DNA of 63,032 bases, the filler included, from Reticulomyxa filosa (lineage: Eukaryota; Protista; Foraminifera), in the NCBI GenBank assembly GCA_000512085.1. It is 21 parts of 21 records of this genome, joined end to end, with 100 filler letters (N's around TTAATTAATTAA, not from the genome) between each part and the next. Parts side by side here need not be neighbours in the genome. Positions count along the whole stretch, not along the records: positions 29,497 to 34,178 come from ASPP01024629.1; 20 more parts are not named here. One strand, 5' to 3'. This document shows, one piece after another, positions 10,402 through 51,232 of the stretch. How positions within the stretch are numbered: position 1 is the stretch's first letter; the number at the start of each line of letters is the position of its first letter. Made by a program: the position numbers and the translations under genes. Below the pieces are notes generated by a model, which made no database searches, was not told the DNA's origin, and saw nothing but the letters and a program-made list of their open reading frames with translations.

Positions 10402-13095
10402 CTAAAAGAACGGTATTTGTGCAGTATAAGATTTAGAAAATTTTTTCTTATATGCATCTACGAGAGTATCTCCTTTCGAACCTCCAATATTTCTGAGAAC
10501 TTCCTCAGAAACCAAGTTTGTCAATTGATCTGAGCCCTTTTCTGAATTAATGTCTAATTTTTCGCATCTGCCGTTTGTGGCACAAGCTATTTTTCTAAAA
10601 CTTTGTTCTGCTCGTTCACAAATAAAAAATGCATGAACTGGAATATTAAAATCCCTCAATTGTCGCAACTCATCTTTAAAATATGTCAGACGCGAAAATA
10701 ATTTTGTATTTTTCCAGTAATTTTCTCCATTGTAAGGCCAGATCGATGTTTCGGAATTTGTTCCGTGTCTACTGTTTCTTCTCTTTTCTTCCACTTCCCT
10801 TTGGGTATTTGGTGGTGCATCACCAATCAAAATGACTTGAGAAACATCATATGTTTTAAGTTCTCTGTTGACGTAAGCTAAGACAACCTCAATTGCCTCA
10901 TTTCCATCCCCATAGCGTGGCTGTACTTTTTCCATAAAGCTACGTAGACCCTCAGGTTTGGATTCCCAAGGAGAAATCTGCAAGAGCATATCCTCTGGCG
11001 CATTGTAATTTCGATAAACAACAAATTGCATTTCAAAGTTGTTGGGAGAGTTATTTTCCTCCAAAATGGATTGATACGCTCAAACATAGTGCTTACAGCA
11101 TGTTTGCTTTTTCGTAGTAAGTGAGACATAGATCCAGTTGCATCCATAAGAACCATTGTACGTACACATTTTTTTTCGTCCGTCCCCCGATTTTGTTCAC
11201 ATAACATTTCCTTTACCGTAATGATATCGCTGTCCTTCACCGCTTTGATCAATGCCTCACTCGCTTTGTGCTGTATTGCAGCATCTGCCACATATTTCTT
11301 GCTATCTTCATATTGTGTACTGAAAAAACGGTTTCGACTACTGTTGAGCAGGGGATAAAAACTCCCTTCTTTTCGTGCTTTTTCAATGTCATTTTTGGTA
11401 ATCAAAAATCTTTCCAGTGCTTTTTCACACAAAACCAAACTATAAGAGCCACAACCCCCTTGCCTAGCAGTACGTCCTTTAATTTGCGTTTCTTCGGATA
11501 ATTCTTCCGAAAGAAAGGCTTGAATCACATGTGGCCACCATTAGGGTAACAATTTGGTCATGACAGGCAAAGTCAGTTCCTCTTCCAAATGATTTGGTGA
11601 ATAGTCCAATTTGACCAGAGGTAGTGGCACGTTTTATCAAAGACTCTTTTTCTGCAAAAGAATTCTCTTCTGTCATTACAATTGCAGCGCTCTTCATTGG
11701 TGCAAAGTTAACGGATTCGTAAAATTCTTTTAATGATTTTATGGAATCAAAGAATACCAAAACAGCTCGCTTTGTCCCCTCCGTTCTTCCAACAAGTTTG
11801 TAGTCAATTTCTGTTTTCAATGCATTAAAGTAGATGCTTTCATCCTCAATGATAATATCATTTTTTTCTGCGAAGGCAAGCTTATGCTCGCCAAACAAAG
11901 ACGGTATATATGTATATTTGGACACATGATAATCTTCTTTCACCACATTTTTTTCAATTTTGCTTAATGTCGTCAGCGTTCCACTTACCCCCATGATGCA
12001 GCAAAACTTTTTGGGGACCTCTGCATAAGAGAAATTGCCAATTTGAAAGGAAATAAAGACATTTTGTTTAAAGCTTTCGTCACTAATCTTAGCTTGTTCG
12101 TGTTCGTGATAGTATGCAAACAAAGTCTTGTATCCATAGCGGACATTGTAAGAAATACTGTCTTGGTCTTTGTATCCAATTTTGTCATTACTGACTTGAT
12201 AACTGTGAGACGCAAATGTGTATACATCCCTCAACATATCTTTAATGGCTTCGTCCAACAATGAGTCCCATCCTTTCAATATGTTACAACAGGCCCTGTA
12301 TACAGGTGATCCCCTCACCTTGTTCAATGTCAAACGAGGTTCTCGATTGCTCCAAATGAAATCAATCAATTGAGTAATGATGTCATGACGCAATGTCGCG
12401 GCCGGAGAATAGAAACTACCATAAAATTCTTTACTAAAAAATATATCGACCTCATCGATCAACAGTATTTTCGCACAAGTAGTACGAGCTGTTTCATTGA
12501 AAAATGTTTGCTCTTCTTTTCTGTCTTCTCCTGAAAGCAGTAAGTGTTCCACGAGTTTGCGTACATCTCCTTCGTCATTGATAAGTCTCTCACAAAGTTG
12601 GTTAAAGGTGCCATAATGAATATGATCGGTTACTCCAAACGCATTAAATAACGGTTCAAAGCTTTTCAAATCTCTGCAGCTTAAGTATTCACTGTACGAA
12701 GCACAACTCACATCAAAGCCAAACAATGCCAATGCACATGCAGTAACGGCCAAGATAATCGACTTTCCTTCTCCAGTTCCAATTTGAACAAAGTTGTTGA
12801 TTAGTGCAGTTTTGCTTTCTCCAGTCCCAATAAAGTTGTTGATTAGTCCAGGTTTGCCTTCGTCAATGCCCAGCATACAAAAGATTGCAATAACCTGGGC
12901 AGCATGTGGCTTCAATAAATAAGACTCTTTGTCGTTCACACCATTTGCATCGTGATAATATTGTGAATTTTGAAGTGCATAATGCAAAGATATGTGCTAA
13001 TAGACTCGGCACGCTGTCTCGGATTGTTGCGTTCCATGTGATATTGTCTGGATTTTGTTTGCTTCTGCGGTAATTCTTTTTGACATTGCTTGTAA
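10402..13095 (-). pseudogene. SecA-DEAD-like SF2 helicase plus C-terminal VWA domain, intronless, frameshifted
   Basis: PHAAQV (Q motif), QIGTGEGKS (Walker A), LLIDEVD, GVSGT, FGRGTDF, HVIQAF..QIKGRTARQG. Then a VWA domain with VLMDATGSM (MIDAS), FVVYRNY, GNEAIE and VILIGDAPP. Frame breaks near 12985, 11540 and 11068. Confidence 0.8.
12766..12861 (-). repeat. In-frame tandem duplication (about 42-48 bp unit) of the Walker A-coding segment
   Basis: Protein reads GLINNF--IGTGESKT / ALINNFVQIGTGEGKS. DNA AAAGTTGTTGATTAGT occurs twice, 42 bp apart. Confidence 0.85.
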
Positions 13096-26089: not shown

Positions 26090-27000
26090 TCTCATTATAA
26101 AGCCCAAGGACCCGATATTGAGCGAAAAGCAGTTATTACATCAAACACAAGCAGGATTCCAATCATGGCATAGATGGGTTGTTATTGAGATTAGCTTAGA
26201 CAATCCACAAGTCATTCAATTGTAATTCAGTGACTTATGCAGTTTTATTGGATATTTCTACAGCATACGATAGTGTATGGAGAAATAGATTAAGATATAA
26301 AATAAGTTTAATAGATTTTTATCAGATCGACTTGGAATAGTACTATTGAATGGAGTTCATTCAAAATAGATGACTTATTCCAAGCATGTTAATTATGTGT
26401 ATGGTAAAGCTTCAAAAAAACTTGGATATTTGACATAAATATGTTCATACAAAGGTTTGAGACCAAGCTTATCCACATATAATCTATTATACAAGACAAT
26501 CATTCGTCCAAGTCTTGAGTATGCATCGGTATTTTGGAATATTGCTGCAGAGATGATTGGAACGAATACAAAGGATTGCAATGTGTCGCATTCTTGGTGT
26601 GATGAACCAGGCTGCTTATGGCACAATCAATGCTATTTCTCAACTTCATCCTTTGGAATGGCGACGAAGACAAGAAGATGTGAAGTTATATCACAAGTGT
26701 ATCAGATAGTCAGGTCGATTTCATTGATTGATAAATTGTCGATATTATCTCGTAGATGTATCCATGTACTGAGGCTGGATTGCCGACAGTTGAATCTGAT
26801 TGTCATTCAGCCCCAAATGTTTGAACGAAAGATAATTTGTCTGCTGATCACTGGTAAAATTGGATTGAATTATTATTTGTATAATATCCAAATATCATAG
26901 TCTCCTGATTGTATTTGGTGTGAAGAAGATACTGTCTAGCATTTCCTGATTGAATGTTTATAGTATCAAGAATTACGTCGCAGTTAATGGACAAATATCC
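26090..27000 (+). mobile_element. Decayed non-LTR (LINE) retrotransposon: reverse transcriptase, thumb and C-terminal zinc-knuckle remnants
   Basis: QAGFQSWH, AVLLDISTAYDSVWR, HVNYVYGKASKKLG, LLYKTIIRPSLEYASVFW and CIWCEEDTV*HFLIEC, interrupted by stops and deletions. Confidence 0.85.
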
Positions 27001-30000
27001 AATAATTTATCATTGGTGATCGATCTTGGAAACCAGATATCAGAATCAAAGTTGTCAAGGCAGAAGCAAAGTTCGTTATCGATACCAAGAGAAAGATTTG
27101 AACATTTTATATTCTATTTACTTTTTCATTTGATTTAATATTACCTTCTTTTCTTCTGTTTTGTATCATTTCGACAGCACGATCTTTCACAAAACAATAG
27201 ACATGTTTTTACATTTTAATAAAATAGTAAAAATGATAAAAATAAATATGTAACACCTAAAAAAAAAGGAAAATATCAAAAAAATGTTTAAAAAAAGATT
27301 TGCAAATTTCATGACTACGAGAAAAACAAGATTGTCAACTTTCTTTTTATCCTGGCACAAATCTCATTGGAAATAAAAGTAATGCATTTACATACAGAGA
27401 TCATCCCCCGATCTTGATAAAGTATTGAATCTTTTTTAGCTGTTCTACATCAACACCAAGACAATTTGTTTTATACAAAATTACAACTCTTGAATATGCG
27501 AAGTTTTAAAAATACTGAAAATTTTCTAATCTACAAGGAACTTCATGTTGTAGACAATATAATTAATTGATTTTATACGAAAATTAAACTTATAGATATT
27601 TGAATTTGTTACTTCTATTATTCAGACAAACTATATAAATCATTGTTTTTGCAAATAAAATTGTATAATTTTTCCTTTGATTCAAAGTGTTATTTCATTA
27701 AAGGACGCATCCATTGATATTGAATTTGTTTGTTGAACAGTAAAAAAATCGTCTTTAGTTCAAAAATATTATTGGTCATTTTCTTATTTGGTAAATATGT
27801 AATATAATTTGAATTATTTTTTATATTTTTAAAAAATTTATTTGTTTTGTTGTGTTGCACTTAATGAAAACATATTATATTATCACAAAAAATGTATTTG
27901 CATCAAACAATTATGTAAAATATTGGATGATATTTTTGTTCCAATATTTATTTCACTTATTTTATTTAAATACAAAAATAGCAAAATGCTGGATACAAGG
28001 AGCAATGATCAATCTTTGAATGCTATATAAATATACAAAGACAAAAAAAAAGAGAAATCAAACTCGAATGAATGAAGAGATTGGAGCACAATTGAGACCA
28101 TTTGCAATGCAAAGGTTGTAATGATTACACAAAAAAAATGAGGATTTCATGCAACAACGTATAATGCAATGCTAGTTGTGATCCTCCTCCAATCTCTGTA
28201 GACTACGAAAGAAGGAGATCCCGTTGGACTCTATGTTTCATTCTGATGATGCAATCCATTACTTCACTATAATCTACGCATGCGTAGTCTATGAGAGGAA
28301 AGAAACAACAACAGCAATACGGTGACGAAAATTGAATCGGGAAATACCATCAAATAATCCAAAAACATTAACGTCAAATAAGTAATACAATAAAAAAGAA
28401 AATTTGTTAATTCAAAAAAAATGCAAAAAGGTGATCCACTGCCAAAGGGTGGAGAGGGAGAGAAAAAATGGACGAAAAAAAAACAACAGCCAAGGGGAGG
28501 GGATGTAATGCAAATCTATTAGAAGTGCAAGCAAGACATTGACAACAAAAAAATTAGAAAATAAATGCATATACGTATAGCATAAATAAAGTTGAAACTC
28601 CAGAAATTGTGATGATAACATAATAACGGCTCCCTATCAGTCGCAACAAATAATGTATCATAAATCACGTACTATACTATACTCTTCGATTATCCGGTTA
28701 CAACAGGTAAAAGAAGAGATGACAAAATGGGTGCTTCTGCCTGGCCTTTACAAATGATTAATGATGTTACGAATACTAATACTGATCTAAGGTTTTGATA
28801 GCTTCATCCATTGCAACCTATTATATACCTCCAGTAGAATACATGAATACACGATAACGAAGACTGAACTGCCACGATCAAACCAGAATACTATCGATGC
28901 AATACCATCCATAACATACTTTGAACCAAGATCCCAATTCCAATAATCTTGAAACAAAAAGTCGCTCCATAATAACTTTCGACGTCATTGATTATTGAGG
29001 CAGTCCAAAGTTTTGACACAAAGAAAGAAGAAAGACGGTTGAGTTACCTTTGCTTGGACAAAATTGTGGAGAGAATGGCGATATTTTCATCACCGAAAAC
29101 TTCAAACTTGACAAGCTTTCTAAAAAAAGTTTATTTACACGACACAATGTAAAGAACAGAATATGAATTTAAGGTGCTGAAAAATATTGAAATGAAATTT
29201 GTATGTGATATTATCATGTTAATTTGTGATCCAGTAAAAAATATCTGTCAATCATTGATGTTTTTTTAAATCAAGATAGTCATATTCAATTGCTTTTGGG
29301 ATAAAATTTAACACCATTTCAAATATGCAAAGATTTTTATTCTCTTCCTACTATTTCATGCAAAAGAGTTTATTTGCTTTGTAAGCAAACACTTATNNNN
29401 NNNNNNNNNNNNNNNNNNNNNNNNNNNNNNNNNNNNNNNNTTAATTAATTAANNNNNNNNNNNNNNNNNNNNNNNNNNNNNNNNNNNNNNNNNNNNACAT
29501 GCAAACTTTTCATCTCCCGGCGCGCGATGTGAGAGGTGACGGTTAACAGTCATGAGTCTCCAGCGTAAGAAGCACACGCTCTCCACCCAATCTTTATCTT
29601 TTTATTTGTTTTTTCATTTTTTTATTTTTCACTTTCTAATGCTCCTTCCATCTTCAGACCATCTTCATGCCGATCTCGATTTCAATTGCAAACGACGATT
29701 TTGTTCCACAGTTACGTATGTTTGTTTATTCATACATTTTTCCTTTCTTGACATACGATTCATCTTCTCTTTCAGTCATGAATTGTCTTTTGTAAGCAAC
29801 TCTCGGAGCTGTACGTATTCGATTGGATTGATCGTTATGGCTTGTACATTCTGGTGCGTCGTTGTGGTTTGTGCTGGTCGTGGCGTATTATGGTGGAACA
29901 TTCTGCAATATTGGATTGTGATGGGATTGTTGGATTGAATTTGCTGTGTTGTGGTGAGATGATAATGGATGATTATGGATTTTGGTTGGATTGATTTTGA

Positions 30001-31201
30001 GATATTTAAAAAAACGTTAGCAAGACCCTCGTTTTTGTAATTTTTTTCCGTTGGTATTAAGATGATGAACAACGTGTTATTTTGGTGTTCAAAAACGGTA
30101 AGACTATTTTTCATTTTAAAAATATATATGATATAAACTTAAAAATCGGAGTAACAATTTTTTTTTTTGTGATGGAAAACAAATTTTAGTACGGGGCTGT
30201 CCTTTGAAATGGAGGCTTCACAGGATACAAAGAAGAAAAGAACAGTACAGAAAGCATTTCTGGAACAACTAACTTTGAACTGTCCTTCTAAGTGGTGAAA
30301 CTTACAACAAGTAGCAATACTTGAAGACACAGTGCCTGACCGTCGGAGAGAACGCTTTTGTCGAAATGTTGAACGTAAAGTTTCACGAGTTGGAAACAAT
30401 TGTCAAGCAACAATTGACTTTTTTGTTGAAGACAATAATGCTTAATGATTCAAACAACTGCAGAAATAGCAAAAATAAAATTTTATTCGAAATACTTCTA
30501 CGTTTTTGGGCTAAGTGATTAAAATATTCCGAATTTTTTTTTACAGCGGTTACTTGGGCAAAGTATCACTTTTTATTGATGAACAACCATTTTTGAATTA
30601 TTATATTTTTTGGTTCTGCAATCAACAGTGTCGCTTTTGTAGAGCAAGGCTCTACTGGTTAGGCACTTATTTATTTATGGGCAATCTGTCACTAGAAAAC
30701 AAAGTGACTTACAAGCAAAAGATTATACAACTTCAATTGATTTTCAACATTATGAATGATATCAACTTTTAATAATTTTTTTGTAAGATCATTCAAAGCT
30801 AAAATGTTTCCTGGTTGATCTTTCGGTGCTTTGTATATATAGTTTTTAAAAGTTTATTGAAATCCAAAATATTGAAAAGTGTAGAAGAAAATAAACAATG
30901 ACTTGTTATCCTTCAAGGAAATATCATGTGGCACTATTTAAGAATATAACTGACAAAGCACAATTATCATATTGGGAATGAACAATTGATAAGTGGTTGG
31001 ACTTTGTAGTCATGGACGAGCACAAGAAAAAAATCAAAAAAATCCCGTCCTACACCAAACATTCGATGGTTTGGATGGGATGAAATAAAAGTTATGAAAC
31101 GAAAACAAGAAAAAAGCACAGAAAAAGGGAGGAGAAAAAACAATAAAAAACTCATAAGAAAATGATGATGTAAGAAAAAGAGAGCCAAAATGACAATTTG
31201 A

Positions 31202-32420
31202 TCACAATTGTGGCTGGGCTTGCGTTTCAGAAGCAAGCAATTTATCTTTTTCAAATTTGAGAATCGCCTCTTCAAGCCAAACTAATCCTTCCCATAGCCC
31301 TTGACCAGTGAGTGCACAGCACCCTTGGAAATGTACCTCTCGTCCCCAATCCACAGGAACGCCAGGCAAGTATTCAAAAATGCAGCGTAAAATTTCTGGT
31401 TGGTTAAGATCATTGTCAAACCCGCAATTTTGGGTAAATTCGTTCCATGAAATTTTGCTTCCAGGGGTCATTTCTAAAAGTTCAGATATCTGAGTTATTG
31501 TCATTGCATTTTCCGAGTCTTGTTTATTCGCAAATACTTCCCAAAGTTTGTCATAAGTCAGTAATCAAACAAACCGACCAAAATTAATTTAAAAATTTTT
31601 TTTGATATTAGTATATTCCCTTACTTTTCTTTGTGATTAAAAAGAAAAAAAAAAAGATGACAACTTAGCAGTGGGATATCCCGCAATGAAGGTTCGGATA
31701 GGCTGTTATATAATTCGTCTTTGACAGTCCCTTCCCACTCTTCATCTTCTTCTTCATTCCATATCAATTTTTCCTTGTCTGTGCTATCGATTACCCATAT
31801 TAACGCATTAACGCCTTTCTGTGAGTACTTTCTTCATCGACAAACAATGCATACTCAAAAAAAAAAAAAAAGGGGGACACAACAATAAAAAAATTGTCAT
31901 GACTATACCTCCACTCAGGACCAGTCGCTTCCTTTCCTATTTGTTTATTTTTTTTTCTTTTTAAAATGCTGTATATGCATGTTATATGTTCGCTGTTAAT
32001 GATGCAAGAGAAAATGTACCAACTGCCCAACATCTGATTTTCATTGGACTCTTTGGTTTGGTAATGTCCGTGTTCAACCATTGCGGTTTTGGCACATATC
32101 TTGCAACAGACACAGTCGCTCCTACTGCTGGGAGAGTATCTGACGATTCATCCGCACTTATTTGTTCCAGTAATGTCGTTTTACCAGCCTTTTTTTTTTG
32201 TCATGCCCACACTGATTTTTTTCATTATCGTCTCAACAAAAAAACTGACCATTTCTAATCCCAACATTATGATTTCCAGTTTAAATTTCTTTTTTTTAGG
32301 ATTCCCAATCACGTCTACTGTTGGTTTGGGCATATTGAATGGCAAAGTTGGTATATTATTGCCCATGCAATCTATTAGGTCAGTAATGGGAGTTTTCAAA
32401 TGTTTCAAATACTTACCCAA
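31202..32420 (-). CDS. Divergent Arf/Arl-family small GTPase, multi-exon
   Basis: Spliced IIMLGLEM|AGKTTLL (P-loop), ALIWVIDSTDKEK, LRDIPLL|VFANKQD and FQGCCALTGQGLWEGLVWL. The protein begins with MG. Confidence 0.8.
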
Positions 32421-32853
32421 GAATTGCTAAAAAAACTTTTTCTTAGCTTGTTGGGATAGGAATTTGTCAAATGCACTAGTTAAATTTAAATGTTTTGCTT
32501 TGTGCTTAACGAGCAAAAATGGAATATATACTAAAATGAAGAGGTCGAGGTAGATCAGAGCCATTTCTTTTTGTGATTTTTTTTGCACAACGACCATGAG
32601 TCGAGTTTATACAGCTTCGATGTAGTAATCTATTAGTAGTGCGGTACACTATATTCCAATGCTGCTTTTAGTTCAGTGAGTGCAAGAGCTGAAACCAGCA
32701 ATAAAAAAGAAACTTTTTTTAATAGGAGCAAGTACAAAACAGTTGATTAAGGGTCTAAATTACAGTGTTTTGAAGAACGAGCAATAAAAAGGGTAAAACT
32801 CTAAAACACAGAAACAGAGGAACCAAGTTTTTAAAGTTCCTCGAGCGAGAAAA

Positions 32854-34131
32854 TTATTTTACCTTTTCAAATTGAAAAACCTCCCACTGCCCGACTTGAG
32901 TCTGTAAATCGATAGTGCTCCCAGCTCCACCAGGATGGGCCCTGAAATAAGTAGAGTAGCAAGTTCGAATGGCCCAACTGGAGCCAACAGGAACAAGAGT
33001 GAAAGTCTCACGATGTCTCACCTCGGTGTTCAAATCAAGTTTGCTGCCTTCTCCGCCAGGAGACGCACGGATGAAGGTACCGTGGAAAGTGCGCAGAGCA
33101 ATGCAATTACCTTTTAAGGGGATAACATCAAACTGTTCCCAATCGCTAACTTTGGTTTGCAAGTCTAATTCGCTGCCAACCTTTCCAGGATGAGCTCTCA
33201 AGTAAGTACCGTGATACGTTTTGATGGCAACACGACAATTCAAAAACCACTTGTCATTGTAACCCTCTTTGCCATCCTCGCCCTTTGTGGTCTTCTGCTC
33301 GAGCAACACGAAATAATCGGTCTTATGTTTCCAGAAGGTCTTCAAATGATTGTCTTTGAAATGCAGTCGCCGCAAATCCTCCATTTGCAAGGGCTCCAAA
33401 TGATCAGCGCAACCGAAGCCATGCTGTTTCAGTATTTGCAAATACGATTTCGGCTTGCCATCCACAATTACTTGAGTGACTCCATCTGGAGATTTGCCAC
33501 TCGTGTCGGGCAGCCATTTTCGTAGCAAGCTGTCAATCGAGTCTTCTTCACCTTCAAAAGCGTTTGTCTCGCCCTCACCTATGTCTATATCCATGTCCAT
33601 CTCTGTCTCCCCTTCTTTGACATCATTTTGATTTTGATCACTCTTCTTATCATTCTTCTTGTCATTCTTCTTATCATTGTTATTACTGTTGTTGTTGTTG
33701 TTGTTGTTGTTGGATGACAGCGATTGAAAACGCTCGCTTGTGTGCTGCAGCTTAGGTCGAATGTGCTGTGTGGCATAATTATAGGCAGTGTTCCCATTTT
33801 CGGTTTCAAACAAACGCATGCGTTTGAACAGGTAATATGAATCTTCCTTGTGCTGTTCGAACATCTTATGGTTCAATTGCACTTCGCAGACAATGTTGCT
33901 CCCTGGGCAGTTCACATACACTTGCAAGTAGCGATAACCAAATGACTCATTGCCACTTCTACTGAACAGATCTTTTGCAAACAGCAATCCTCCGTTCATT
34001 GTCTTCTCTTCATTCGCTATTTGTTTCAGTATCGTAAACGCACGATACAAATCCGAGAATGTTTCAAACACAAATGAACAACGGAGTAAGTCTCTCAATT
34101 GCTTGTAATTGCCTTTGTATACGTAATAAGT
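32854..34131 (-). CDS. RelA/SpoT-type nucleotidyltransferase plus SAM-like plus fascin-like beta-trefoil protein, 5' partial
   Basis: YKGNYKQLRDLLRCSFVF..KDLF..GYRYLQV..CEVQLNH (RelA_SpoT-like motifs). YLQILKQHGF..LEPLQMEDLRRLHF..H (SAM-like). Three repeats of AI(K/R)TxHxT(Y/F)xRAxPG..LDL.T.V..WExF (fascin-like trefoil). Confidence 0.7.
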   Translation of the reverse strand, partial: TYYVYKGNYKQLRDLLRCSFVFETFSDLYRAFTILKQIANEEKTMNGGLLFAKDLFSRSGNESFGYRYLQVYVNCPGSNIVCEVQLNHKMFEQHKEDSYYLFKRMRLFETENGNTAYNYATQHIRPKLQHTSERFQSLSSNNNNNNNNSNNNDKKNDKKNDKKSDQNQNDVKEGETEMDMDIDIGEGETNAFEGEEDSIDSLLRKWLPDTSGKSPDGVTQVIVDGKPKSYLQILKQHGFGCADHLEPLQMEDLRRLHFKDNHLKTFWKHKTDYFVLLEQKTTKGEDGKEGYNDKWFLNCRVAIKTYHGTYLRAHPGKVGSELDLQTKVSDWEQFDVIPLKGNCIALRTFHGTFIRASPGGEGSKLDLNTEVRHRETFTLVPVGSSWAIRTCYSTYFRAHPGGAGSTIDLQTQVGQWEVFQFEKVK

Positions 34132-34278
34132 CTTACGTCGCACAGTACATACATACAACACGTGTACAATAGCATTGTNNNNNNNNNNNNNNNNNNNNNN
34201 NNNNNNNNNNNNNNNNNNNNNNTTAATTAATTAANNNNNNNNNNNNNNNNNNNNNNNNNNNNNNNNNNNNNNNNNNNN

Positions 34279-35900
34279 TGGTTTCCACGATCGATCACCA
34301 ATAATGAATTGTTTCATTGATAAAGACAATACATTGATATCTGGAAGCATTCACTTTATCATTACTAGGAATCCAGAATGACCTTAATCCAATAGATCTC
34401 TGGAGCATTATCTCAATATTTTCTGACAATTCATAATTGGCAATTTATAGATATCAGAATCCCATTTGTTGGATACTTGCAATCAGTAAAAATAATCACT
34501 TCCACAATGTAATCTATAATGATTACCCAAGTATTTCAATGCAATTCCAATTGCCGAATGACAAGTCCTGCTCCAATTCCAGGATTCGTGAAAGTACTTC
34601 AATCACAAAATATCACAATGCAATCAAAATCCAATGATGACAAAATTTCGTCTCATTGCAATTTGTATTGGTGGAATATTTGGTATTGGATGTGGACCTG
34701 GTTCAACTGTCAGCATCAACTTCATTGATGCATCCACTGGATAGATATCGCCAATTTAAATCTGATATTATCTTCAACCATTTCATAATGTTTTTCATCA
34801 ACATCTTTTGGAGGCTGAGGATATTCTGCAAATGTCTTTGCCAATAGATATGCTCTATCAATATCTGGACTAGTCTCATTGTTCACCAATGCTGGAATAA
34901 TGAATATTTTATTGGTGTTCAATGCCTTGAATTGTTTAAATAAATTCCTTGTGTTCCCTTCATGCAGCGAATTTATGCTGTTTACCATATGTTGATGCTT
35001 TTCTAATTGCAATTTCCTTCGCAATTGCTTGAAGCTCTTATACGTCATCAGATTCCTTGGTATTCTTTGCTTACGAAATTTGTTCTTGATTTTGAACTCT
35101 TTCACCAATACCAATTGTCGCTTCTCCAGCTTCAACAACACATTTGCTCCAAGATCCGATTGCTTTATCCAAAGAATCTTGATTTCTCGATACAATTGGA
35201 TCAATAGATTTCATTTAATTTTCAATCTAAATCTAAATTGTTGCTTCTCAGATTCCAAGTCTCAATCTTTTGTCGTTCAATACGTGGTAAAGCCCACGTG
35301 GTCTTGATATTGAACGTGATCGGGAATGTGGTATCTATGCTTGATGTCGCATTATCTTTTATGAACGTGCAATATGTAATCCATTGGATAAAATGAAATC
35401 AAGAATACATTCACCCACATCGTCGATATTAGATCTAAACATGCGGGATAATGTGCATTTCAATCTCCTCCAATGATAATGTGTTCAGCTGATTTTATTC
35501 GTGCTCGAATGCTTGTATATTAAATTGATTACACTGCAGAATAATAGCGATTTCTTTTGATCAGGATATGAAATTTCCACCCAACACGATTTATAACCAA
35601 ATACATTGAATGTATCAGGCATGCTATTGAATGATCGTGATAATGAATGCAAATCTCTTCGACATAACACTCCAGTCTCTCCGCTGATGAACATAAAGAT
35701 ACTGGAAATTATAATCAATATCCTTCTTCTTTGATCTAAACCCTTCTTGCAATAAACAGATATGGGCTGCTTCTGATGCAAATTTGTTCGTTATCAAGAA
35801 CTTAAAGAAACATGGCGAGCAGCAATCAAGAATTTGTTGCCGCAATTTCACTTCAACATATCGTGGCAGCTGGAAAAATTAAAATAATTTTTTTGATAAT
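34279..35900 (-). mobile_element. Decayed LINE: APE endonuclease, linker and start of reverse transcriptase
   Basis: ICLLQE, HIIIGGD*NAH and AYLLAKTFAE..KDVDEKHY. Many stops and deletions. Homologous to 36820-37636. Confidence 0.75.
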
Positions 35901-37636: not shown

Positions 37637-37737
37637 NNNNNNNNNNNNNNNNNNNNNNNNNNNNNNNNNNNNNNNNNNNNTTAATTAATTAANNNNNNNN
37701 NNNNNNNNNNNNNNNNNNNNNNNNNNNNNNNNNNNNT

Positions 37738-37771
<34 letters not shown>

Positions 37772-37799
37772 GTTAACGGAATTTCACAATGAATTTTGC

Positions 37800-38482
37800 A
37801 AAGGCATATTATGGCCATTGTTGCATTATGTGATGCCAACGAACAATTTGAAATATGGATGCAAGTTTGAAAAGCTGTGGAAGGTGTTCCAAAACGTGAA
37901 CCTGCAGTTTGCAAAAAAAACAGCGGTGGCGGCGGACGCCGACGCCAATGCGATGATATGGTTCCACAACTACCACTTGTTGACGGCCCCGTATTTTCTG
38001 CGCAAGCAAGCGCCCAAGGCGTTCATTGGCTACTTCTTGCACACGGTGTTTCCGACGAGCGAAGTGTTTCGAGCCTTCCCCACCAAAGTGGAGATATTGC
38101 AAGGGATGTTGTCATCGGACCTGATCGGCTTCCACACGTTCGACTACGCGAGACATTTCGTGTCGTCGTGCCATCGCATTTTGGACTTGGAGTTTTACAC
38201 GCTGCCAAACGACGGCACATTGGTGGTCCATGTGGCCGGGAGGGATGTGAGTTTGAGGATCGCCCACGTCGGCACGAGGAGCGCCGAAATCCTGCAAGAG
38301 TGTCAAACCGCACAGATCCAACGCTACGCGCAGGAATTCCGAGACAAATTGACCGGCGGCGATCCTCATAAAAGGATCATTTTTACCGCTGGCGATTATG
38401 AAATCGTGCGTGGTTTAATTTTTACAATTAAAGTTAGGCAATGTACGCATATAAATAAATATATACATATATAAATATATGA

Positions 38483-38534
<52 letters not shown>

Positions 38535-39980
38535 ATATATATGTATATATGTACATATATACATATTAATAAAGGGGTTTGCTCGCTTTTTGGAAGAGTT
38601 CCCTCGGGCGGTTGAGTCCGTAGTATTTGTGGTACTAATCCGCTCGCCGAATAGCATTCAAGGCGGACTTCCGCAATTCAGTGTGGAGAATGACATAACG
38701 GAGGAGATCAAAAAGATCGAGGAGAAGTACAACGGGAAGAAGCTCGTGCACTTGTGGGACGAGCCGCCGTCGTGCGAACAGGTGTATGCGCTTTGCAGCA
38801 TCACCGATGTGGCTCTGTTCACTACGTTTTGGGATGGGTTCAATGCGATGCCTTATGAATGGACGGCGGCGCAAGGCGCGAACAAAGTCCCCGGTGTGTT
38901 GATCGTGAGCGACTTTATGGGCTGCGTGCGCAGTTTGAATGGGGTGATCCGCATCAATCCATGGCAAAGCAGTGAAGTGTCGCACGCCATTTATCAGGCG
39001 TTGACGATGAGCAACGCGGCGAAGCAAATGCAGCATACGCGAAGATTCGGACATGTGATGAACTACACGTTTGAGCGTTGGGCACTTGCGTTTTTGGACG
39101 ACTTGAAAAAAGCAGGCGAAGCAAAGGCATCCAATGAAATGGTGGCCATTGGCATGGGCAGCACGTTCAAATGGGTATGTCTGCCAAAGCATTTCACTCG
39201 AATCAAAGATCATGAGTCATCGCTGGTGCGATCGTTTGCGCAGTGCAAGTATCGCATTTTGCTGTTCGATTATGGCGGCACGTTGGTGTCGGATAAGAAC
39301 AACTGGGTCATCGACGACAGTCATTCTCAGCACAACACTTTGGCCCCGCTGCAGCAGCAGCAGCAGCAACACAAGTCATCGCCGATGATCATCACACACA
39401 CGTTCAAAAATAATCAACCCACTCGCTCGCCCATTGTCGATTATTTAAACGAACTCACCGAACTACCCAACACTTATGTGTGCGTCATCTCTGGACAAAC
39501 GCGGTCGCAAATACAAGTGGCTTTGTCCGAATTCCCGAACGTGTATTGTCTGGCGGCTGAAAAAGGGGCTTTTCTGCGATGGAAAGGGGATGACACCACG
39601 TGGTCGGAACGTTCCAAACTCGGCGATCACTTGTCTTGGCAACACCTTGCTATGCCTGTGTTGCAGACGTATACCGAACGCACCGATGGGTCCTTCGTCG
39701 AACGCAAAGACACGGCGCTGGTGTGGCATTACCACGACAGCGATCCGAGCTATGGAGATATCCAGGCCAGGGAGTTGGAACGCTATTTGAATGGACTGCT
39801 CGTCCCGTTTCATAATATCATCGTCCAAAAGTATGACCACCAACGCATTGTCGAAATTTTGCCCAAAGATATCAACAAAGGCAGCGCCGCTGTGGCTATC
39901 GTTCGCAAGTTGCTAAAGGACATTGAAGCTCAGTCCCAATCCAATACCAACCACAATGACCTTGAATCGAAAAAAGAAGA
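37800..39980 (+). CDS. Trehalose-6-phosphate synthase/phosphatase (GT20 plus HAD) fusion, partial at both ends
   Basis: [87 protein letters not shown] and [10 protein letters not shown]. (TA)n intron at about 38433-38574. Confidence 0.92.
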
Positions 39981-40080
39981 NNNNNNNNNNNNNNNNNNNN
40001 NNNNNNNNNNNNNNNNNNNNNNNNTTAATTAATTAANNNNNNNNNNNNNNNNNNNNNNNNNNNNNNNNNNNNNNNNNNNN

Positions 40081-50103: not shown

Positions 50104-50536
50104 GGTGCGCGGTGGGATAGTCGCAGCCCAGCGCCACGCCCACGCCGAACAGGAAGAAGACCAGCCAGCCGAAGCTCGGCGCCACGGTCAGCCCGGCCAG
50201 GAAGATGACGAAGACCAGCATCTCGATCACGAACATGCGCCGGCGTCCATAGACGTCGGCCAGGCCGCCCAGCGCGACGGCGCCGACCATGATTCCCGCC
50301 AGGGTGGCGGCGCTCACGATGCCCTTGGCCGCCGGCGAGAGGCCGAACTCCTCGACGATCAGCGGCAGGGCGACGCCGGTCATGAACACGACCAGCCCTT
50401 CGAAGAACTTGCCGGCGGTCGCGAGCGTCCAGATGCGCCACTGCATCTGGGTCATCGGGACGCTGGGGGTCGGGGTGCCATCGGGCCAGGACGGTGTCTG
50501 GTCGATGTAGGCCTGTACGCTTTTCGGTTCTGTCAT
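50104..50536 (-). CDS. Bacterial MFS transporter, 3' truncated by the contig end
   Basis: GGLADVYGRR (MFS motif A), multiple transmembrane helices and GVALGCDYP. GC-rich codon usage. Confidence 0.9.
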
Positions 50537-50609
50537 CTGGACAGATTACCGAAGGACGTTACGCTCGGATGTCTCAAAAGCAAAAACTAGAAGTTTTGGG
50601 GGAAATGCC

Positions 50610-51232
50610 ATGAAGAGACGCAGCCTGCTCGTCGCGGCTCTTGCCGCGCCGTCGATCGTTCCTGCCGTCGCGCTGGGGCAGGAGGCCTGGCCCAACAAGA
50701 CCGTGAAGTTCATCTGCCCCTTCGCGGCGGGCGGCGGCACCGACACGGTGAGCCGGCTGATGTGCGACCAGCTTTCGAAGGCGCTGGGCCAGACCTTCGT
50801 GGTCGAGAACAAGGGCGGGGCGGGCGGCAACATCGGCACGGTCGAACTCGCGCGGGCAGCCCCCGACGGCTACACGATCGGCCTCATCTCGGTGGCCAGC
50901 CACACGCTGAACCCGATGCTCTACACCAGGCTGCCCTACAATCCGGACAAGGACATCGTCGCGGTCTCGCGCGTCGCGCTGCTCGCCAACCTGCTGGGCG
51001 TGACGCCGTCGCTGCCGGCCAACAACGTCGCGGAGCTGATCGCGCTCTGCAAGAAGGAGCCGGGCAAGTATTCCTTCGCCTCCTCGGGGCCCGGCACGTC
51101 GCTGCACCTGAGCGGCGAGCTGTTCAAGAAGATGGCTGGCGTCGACATCATCCACGTGCCCTACAAGGGCGCCGGCCCGGTCTATTCCGACCTGATGGCC
51201 GGCATCGTGAACATGATGTTCGCCAACATGCC
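50610..51232 (+). CDS. Bacterial Bug/TctC-family tripartite tricarboxylate transporter substrate-binding protein, 3' truncated
   Basis: Signal peptide MKRRSLL..A, WPNKTVKFICPFAAGGGTD, VVENKGGAGGNIG, APDGYT, FASSGPGTSLHL and HVPYKGAG. Purine-rich SD-like sequence upstream. Confidence 0.93.

Follow-up and report, generated by a model that had tools for sequence, protein, structure and literature searches.

Whether (p)ppGpp-like signals operate in eukaryotes outside plastids is an open question, and ppGpp has been described in eukaryotic cell lines without a known synthetase (review, PMC8118318). Non-plastid, synthetase-only RelA/SpoT homologues (RSH) have been described in eukaryotes as divRel[S], a sporadic group of Dictyostelium, Aspergillus, Gibberella and diatoms that is thought to be bacterial in origin (PMC3153485). 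Here we analysed a stretch of 63,032 nucleotides from the foraminifer Reticulomyxa filosa (assembly GCA_000512085.1; hereafter the window), in which a minus-strand exon (34131–32854) encodes part of a RelA/SpoT-type synthetase, a SAM domain and a β-trefoil. The exon is genuine, though only a fragment, and belongs to a foraminiferal synthetase-SAM family; it carries a predicted glycan sensor, and its active site is unusual. The family is apparently undescribed: no description of it was found in a literature search that left subscription papers mostly outside, and supplements or RSH survey tables could hold such proteins. In contrast to the exon protein, divRel[S] are described as single-domain and sporadic; SAM or lectin fusions are not mentioned in the accessible text of PMC3153485, and the word 'Rhizaria' is absent from its main text.

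RelP (6ewz/6fgk), RelQ (5dec) and Rel (8acu) share with the family the fold, as modelled for the complete relative P0002 (Z 11–14), and the catalytic Asp, Arg, Lys, Tyr and Glu-x-Gln. Identity to these enzymes is 9–19% and the Pfam score is below the cut-off. Unlike them, the foraminiferal protein has no hydrolase, TGS or ACT domain, carries a SAM and a lectin-like domain, and is eukaryotic and probably spliced. SaEAS (8vx3) and Tas1/Apk1 (6ox6) are exported synthetases that make (p)ppApp or (p)ppGpp. The motifs EVQxH and H-x2-Y-x3-R are common to the family and SaEAS, whereas the exon copy has lost H87, H99 and Y102 of these motifs. Unlike for the exported enzymes, no export signal was seen by eye in P0002, and no immunity gene was seen. 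On the side where an antitoxin or immunity gene of a toxSAS system might adjoin the exon, the contig ends upstream, and the downstream neighbour encodes an Arf GTPase. RelA/SpoT-like domains are also known from the effector XopAD and from toxins (PMC3482391). The model of the XopAD/SKWP synthetase domain gave weak matches (NCBIfam) in 5 of 18 family members, with a best E of 0.002. SARM1 and tankyrase likewise combine a sensor, a SAM domain and a nucleotide-consuming enzyme. Their design is similar in that the SAM domain adjoins both enzyme and sensor, and the P0002 SAM domain matches theirs with Z 7.0–7.4, tied with many other SAM domains; enzyme chemistry and sensor are unrelated, and the likeness is an analogy only.

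Synthetase fold of the exon protein

A first-pass annotation of the window, made from the sequence alone, had proposed a RelA/SpoT-like synthetase fused to SAM and fascin-like domains. The C-terminal part of the synthetase domain occupies residues 1–127 (33751–34131, minus strand), and the motifs named in RelA_SpoT order in the first pass are all present in the translation: YKGNYKQLRDLLR (residues 5–17), GYRYL (65–69) and EVQLNH (83–88). In a Pfam scan of the exon protein, RelA_SpoT (PF04607) scored 13.2 bits and did not reach the gathering score of 27; the best relatives reach 18–19 bits. In PDB sequence searches with enzyme-only queries no RSH chain was found, except that P0003 alone gave SaEAS at E 0.58.

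Structure comparisons pointed to the RSH fold that the annotation had proposed. The Atlas model aligned to RelA_SpoT clusters with template modelling (TM) scores of 0.6–0.7. P0002, which is 45% identical to the exon protein across 280 columns, folded with a predicted local distance difference test (pLDDT) value of 88, and 25 of the 25 Foldseek rows listed for this model were RSH synthetases (E 2e-5 to 3e-3). The top 10 rows of a VIA search with the same model were all RSH, with Rel, RelP, SaEAS, RelQ, Tas1 and CapRel ranked first; the best was Rel 8acu (Z 13.7, root-mean-square deviation (rmsd) 2.7, 136 aligned residues), and SaEAS 8vx3 and Tas1 6ox6 reached Z 11.2 and 10.4. VIA did not place SaEAS or Tas1 above RelP or Rel, and a ranking of RelP/RelQ against Tas1 as the closest system was rejected because the Z values are too near each other. 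When the exon protein itself was modelled (residues 1–280, without the first strand and helix), the first 19 Foldseek rows listed were RSH structures (best E 1.8e-3). Judged by these models, the synthetase fold is above chance; so are the SAM domain and the β-trefoil described below, and Pfam alone names none of the three. With a score short of the Pfam cut-off and only a predicted activity, the exon protein is filed as an RSH variant and not as a proven alarmone synthetase.

Catalytic residues and the acceptor side

In SaEAS and Apk1, the common residues are R124/R330, K154/K353, N169/N370, E182/E382 and Q184, and D121 is catalytic (PMC12691689). FaRel2 holds the ATP triphosphate with a basic R-x-K-x3-S-x3-K stretch (R64, K66, S70, K74), and its G-loop Tyr serves the acceptor (PMC11782079). 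In long RSHs, the Arg of the RxKD motif has been tied to the preference for GTP or GDP (PMC3153485).

All six canonical residues that lie on the exon are kept: D14, R17, K53, E83 and Q85, which by motif mapping correspond to SaEAS D121, R124 (the adenine-stacking Arg), K154, E182 and Q184, and the G-loop Tyr66. The Asp, the E-x-Q and a Gln at the usual His position had already been read correctly in the first pass; this Gln70 lies four residues beyond the G-loop Tyr, where RSH synthetases have His or Asn. Gln70 falls at the position of SaEAS N169, which is non-polar or Cys in 56 of 56 relatives and Leu in 48 of them; relatives with Leu there bear an Asn two residues on, where the exon protein has Tyr. 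Just upstream of the point where the exon starts, relatives carry K-x3-R-x3-K (its basic residues kept in 46/47, 46/48 and 48/50), in agreement with the earlier placement of Syn1 on a missing upstream exon.

The changes in the exon protein are mostly on the acceptor side. In the rebuilt strand-loop-strand (33916–33981, minus strand), Phe51, Leu55, Tyr68, Gln70 and Tyr72 stand where the family has Arg, Arg, Asp, Leu and Asn; the RxKD Arg corresponds to position 51. Relatives keep R51 in 52/56, R55 in 51/56, N72 in 54/56 and H99 in 51/53. We then scored the 21 polar sites that are kept in at least 80% of the family in 55 rows (3 short rows dropped). The median row has one changed site, and the exon protein is joint second-highest.

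Similar changes recur elsewhere in the family. All 6 rows without R55 (of 57) are also without D68, and this happened in at least two lineages, because P0123 groups with the intact P0145 at 100/99. Seven rows have at least four changes, and D68, R55 and R51 are altered in 6, 5 and 4 of them, respectively. Only 3 of the 45 changes in these rows fall at the five catalytic polar residues, where 11 would be expected (P 0.0006, a value for rows that are related and not independent, and for catalytic sites that are the most constrained anyway). Repeated change on the acceptor side together with sparing of the catalytic residues favours a kept ATP-side core and a rebuilt acceptor side.

SAM domain and trefoil

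The synthetase domain is followed by a low-complexity linker of Asn, Asp, Lys and Glu (residues 128–196; 33544–33750, minus strand), which is predicted to be disordered (pLDDT below 50 across residues 141–194). The linker, the helical bundle and the three repeats that had been recognised by eye are all present in the translation. The helical bundle is a SAM domain (residues 197–278; 33298–33543, minus strand) with a 19-residue insertion common to close paralogues. No Pfam SAM match was obtained for the exon copy. It does match the family SAM domain (E 4e-9), and a family profile of 39 rows in turn matches the SAM domains of Caskin, SHIP2 and Eph proteins, with a best E of 1e-7. In the P0002 model the domain has the five-helix fold and aligns to 5zrz (VIA; Z 8.9, rmsd 1.7, 67 residues). 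Complex prediction with two SAM copies gave a score of 0.00, which decides neither for nor against a contact.

The C-terminal domain is a single β-trefoil (residues 296–425; 32857–33246, minus strand) directly followed by the stop codon, and its model resembles β-trefoils with TM scores of 0.8–0.9. Fascin consists of four tandem β-trefoils that bundle actin. The three-repeat trefoil of the earlier proposal stands, but the domain is not fascin: neither a Fascin Pfam match nor a fascin chain among the PDB sequence matches was found for it. The proposed link to the cytoskeleton is not supported, the trefoil being single and CBM92-like. The only two PDB sequence matches were CBM92 domains (E 0.009 and 0.02), a type formerly labelled bacterial fascin-like (PMC11039641). 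CBM92 (7zoh, 7zoi) binds β-1,6-glucan; in its WExF motif, glucose stacks on the Trp and the Glu holds O3/O4, and certain members lack the Trp at one or more sites (PMC11039641). Like CBM92, the exon trefoil is single, and its repeats 1 and 3 both end with WExF (WEQF at 331, WEVF at 416). In contrast to CBM92, which sits on a secreted glycosidase, it is part of a signalling-type protein, and it has Arg for Trp in repeat 2 (RETF at 374) and Gln or Asn for the neighbouring Arg. Among 84 trefoil relatives, Gln and Arg are about equally common at this neighbouring position; all three Trp-Glu sites are kept in 45 and at least two in 62. As the trefoil is single, CBM92-like and has two of the three Trp-Glu motifs, its ligand is more probably a glycan than actin, and the domain is predicted to bind a glucose-containing glycan.

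The closest trefoil relative among the matches listed is P0015 (174 residues; 56% identity), which has three intact Trp-Glu sites. Its first 45 residues gave their best scores against P0002, P0005 and P0010 among the 157 proteins compared; the score against P0002 was equalled in 4 of 2000 shuffles, and a coiled-coil bias is possible. Possibly, P0015 represents the C-terminal end of another synthetase-SAM-trefoil protein. This trefoil type also occurs in other eukaryotes, where its carriers are RING/TRAF, C2 and kinase proteins, and in large proteins of bacteria (P0011, from Chromera velia, P0012, P0031 and P0062); by its sequence distribution, the CBM92-like trefoil is a mobile module.

A foraminiferal synthetase-SAM family

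Among 1.84 billion representatives searched there were 678 matches, the best 150 of which were listed, and 57 relatives out of 157 proteins compared were used for the enzyme-domain alignment. Of 18 relatives with the enzyme domain for which the organism was sought, 12 have a name, and every one of these is a foraminifer, of the genera Reticulomyxa, Nonionella, Bolivina and Elphidium. The exon protein clusters with Reticulomyxa proteins in a moderately supported clade (90/82). The closest enzyme domain among the matches listed is 59% identical to that of the exon protein.

The family core consists of a helical region, the synthetase and the SAM domain, which follows the enzyme in 37 of 40 members that have at least 70 residues there (profile seeded from the family). 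Around this core, domains are swapped: in 48 proteins scanned we found ubiquitin, UBA, UIM, WW, MATH, C1/ZZ, Kelch, kinesin with EF-hand (kinesin motors in two relatives), TLDc and a choline transporter. Lectin-type domains after the SAM domain were found in 3 of 40 proteins scanned, namely a galectin (E 5e-26), an AbfB trefoil (E 2e-33) and C-type-lectin/Link repeats. No other fusion of the enzyme to a CBM92-like trefoil was present among the full sequences in the set of 157 proteins compared. The large size of this family, the cut at the contig end and the loss of many family-conserved polar residues were overlooked in the first-pass annotation.

Several members have further features. P0008 of Nonionella stella is receptor-like, with a hydrophobic N-terminus, an LNR-like match, a hydrophobic segment at 283, WW, synthetase and SAM; P0053 and P0102 each have one hydrophobic segment and a WW domain, and P0123 and P0145 are fused to a choline-transporter-like domain. 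P0105, P0075, P0069 and P0121 form a supported clade with ubiquitin repeats, and P0105 also has a Hint domain. The gene models of P0005, P0010, P0018, P0034 and P0045, judged from the proteins alone, have breaks or odd insertions within the region that is a single exon here, which suggests introns in these paralogues that are absent from the exon at 34131–32854. The match of P0034 begins at the same point as the exon. Two more distant relatives were also found, one on a GC-rich contig with eukaryote-like genes (L004, 2482–3816) and one in a large phage protein (L006, 1501–1839) that keeps the signature R-x-K-D-R and GYRD-x3-N. A motif scan of prokaryote genomes, weak as a test since it used one narrow pattern, gave 15 matches, none of them a relative, and phage records gave matches at E 0.8 only.

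The exon and its contig

The single open exon noted earlier was confirmed, and the AG acceptor noted with it is likely right. The exon (32854–34131, minus strand; 1,278 bases) is the last coding exon, with an uninterrupted reading frame of 425 codons and TAA, and the 5′ part of the gene is missing. The frame is also open through the 47 upstream bases (34132–34178), but their translation lacks the K-x3-R-x-F-Y-K stretch found just before this point in relatives; most likely these bases are therefore the 3′ end of an intron, truncated by the contig end, and a coding read-through was rejected. The AG at 34132–34133 (phase 0) is the sole AG in these bases, homology to relatives begins with the next codon, and it is likely to be the true acceptor.

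The contig stops 47 bases upstream of the exon, which is why earlier exons are missing. Its end is followed by an artificial linker (34179–34278: 44 N, 12 bases, 44 N), one of 20 identical linkers that string 21 small contigs together in the window. Sequence above 34178 therefore belongs to another contig, and neighbourhood arguments across linkers are void anywhere in the window; the idea that the missing exon lies beyond 34278 was rejected for this reason. The contig that bears the synthetase exon (29497–34178; 4,682 bases) has a GC content of 37%. Downstream of the exon and on the same strand it carries an Arf-family GTPase gene of at least three exons (32200–31205, minus strand), three pieces of which match profile positions 24–52, 80–101 and 120–173 in order. 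This spliced gene marks the contig as eukaryotic and, together with the GC content, led us to reject a bacterial contaminant; the protein is host-encoded, as had been claimed.

Proposed mechanism and alternative explanations

The contig is eukaryotic, the three folds are recognisable, the catalytic residues are kept, acceptor-side residues are changed and the family is modular. On this basis we propose a glycan-gated pyrophosphokinase with an altered acceptor, a reading to which we give somewhat less than an even chance. In this model, a cytosolic protein would bind a multivalent glucose-containing glycan through its trefoil, and binding would cluster the protein via the SAM domain. The enzyme would then transfer pyrophosphate from ATP to an acceptor unlike that of its relatives, possibly a nucleotide with fewer phosphates or another base, or an RNA end. 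Its role might be the sensing of microbes or prey. A wider proposal, which we consider improbable as it stands, is that Foraminifera have a cytosolic pattern-recognition system in which a bacterial alarmone synthetase was combined with exchangeable lectin and other sensor domains that cluster the synthetase-SAM core, and in which acceptor pockets rebuilt repeatedly in paralogues, the exon protein among them, yield differing pyrophosphorylated messengers or RNA-end modification.

Several observations weigh against the glycan-gated enzyme. Seven of the 21 conserved polar sites are altered (T13, R51, R55, D68, N72, H87 and H99), which makes the predicted activity of the exon protein less certain than that of its relatives, and with H87, H99 and Y102 lost a dead enzyme is still plausible. 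For the exon protein taken alone, the sparing of catalytic residues does not reach significance (P 0.10). The residue mapping was made from a P0003-SaEAS alignment (46 residues, E 0.58) and motif spacing, not from residue superposition, and the first basic ATP-binding motif would fall on the missing exon. In the trefoil, repeat 2 has lost its Trp, and the Arg beside WExF is replaced in all three repeats (Gln325, Asn368, Gln410). Accessory domains in the family are mostly non-lectin (ubiquitin, UBA, WW, kinesin, MATH, TLDc, C1), and no measured activity of any member was found in the literature.

The main rival is a catalytically dead sensor copy, which would bind glycan (perhaps also ATP) and switch on or damp active paralogues via SAM–SAM contacts, resembling the sensor and helper pairs of immunity. 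We regard it as possible, if rather doubtful. It would explain the many changed polar sites and the long branch of the exon protein (0.77 compared to a median of 0.32), as well as changes that extend to acceptor strands and C-terminal helix alike, while fold, SAM domain and trefoil are all intact; moreover, the signature that the exon protein has lost persists even in the phage protein. However, none of the six canonical residues encoded by the exon has been lost, other paralogues repeatedly change the same sites with the catalytic ones spared, and the Gln70 amide sits at the position of SaEAS Asn169. The kept catalytic residues would also suit an ordinary active member that makes (p)ppGpp or (p)ppApp, in which the changes are tolerated drift and the trefoil merely positions the enzyme; with a net charge of +1, the acceptor segment falls inside the family range, and the Asn at position 87 is also found in the phage relative. 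This seems unlikely to us, as R51, R55, N72 and H99 are near-universal in relatives and their joint loss would hardly be without effect.

An actin-bound synthetase or toxin linked to the cytoskeleton, as first proposed, is less likely still. The nearest Atlas clusters of the trefoil are labelled Fascin, FRG1 and DUF7910 (score 0.96, TM 0.83) and kinesin fusions exist, but the single trefoil and the lack of fascin matches, the former fascin-like label of CBM92 itself and the retention of two or three Trp-Glu sites by 62 of the 84 trefoil relatives all speak against actin. Finally, a decaying pseudogene or retrocopy without function is highly improbable. Most of the many active-site changes are, to judge from the codons, one base from the family residue, and the exon seems to be without the introns implied by paralogue gene models; nevertheless, 1,278 bases have remained without a stop or frameshift although the enzyme domain has diverged by about 41% from the closest one listed, the core residues, SAM domain and trefoil are kept, and a probable intron remnant with its acceptor precedes the exon.

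The large synthetase-SAM family with its swapped sensors offers concrete, expressible candidates for (p)ppGpp-like signalling in eukaryotes outside plastids. The trefoil member contributes an input predicted to be glucan binding, and also a natural pair of acceptor pockets, one intact and one rebuilt, that would show how RSH enzymes switch substrate. The pattern-recognition proposal, if true, would amount to a eukaryotic nucleotide-signalling immune pathway with a chemistry unknown outside bacteria and plastids. The exon itself is of limited value, being a fragment of uncertain activity; for experiments, complete family members are preferable, for instance P0002 or the fusions to galectin and AbfB.

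Other contigs of the window

Other parts of the window hold further coding regions. The piece at 50104–51232 is bacterial, with an ORF (open reading frame) of 65% GC that matches the TctC tripartite tricarboxylate receptor (E 6e-45) and, by eye, an MFS-like transporter fragment. The remaining assignments were also made by eye: a SecA/DEAD-like helicase ORF (11482–12996, minus strand) followed by a vWA-like ORF (10405–11540, minus strand), both from translation; fragments like ORF2 of non-LTR retrotransposons at 34725–35210 (minus strand) and 26439–26897 (plus strand), which lie on other contigs or at a distance; and an intron-containing gene resembling trehalose-6-phosphate synthase/phosphatase at 37689–40029 (plus strand).
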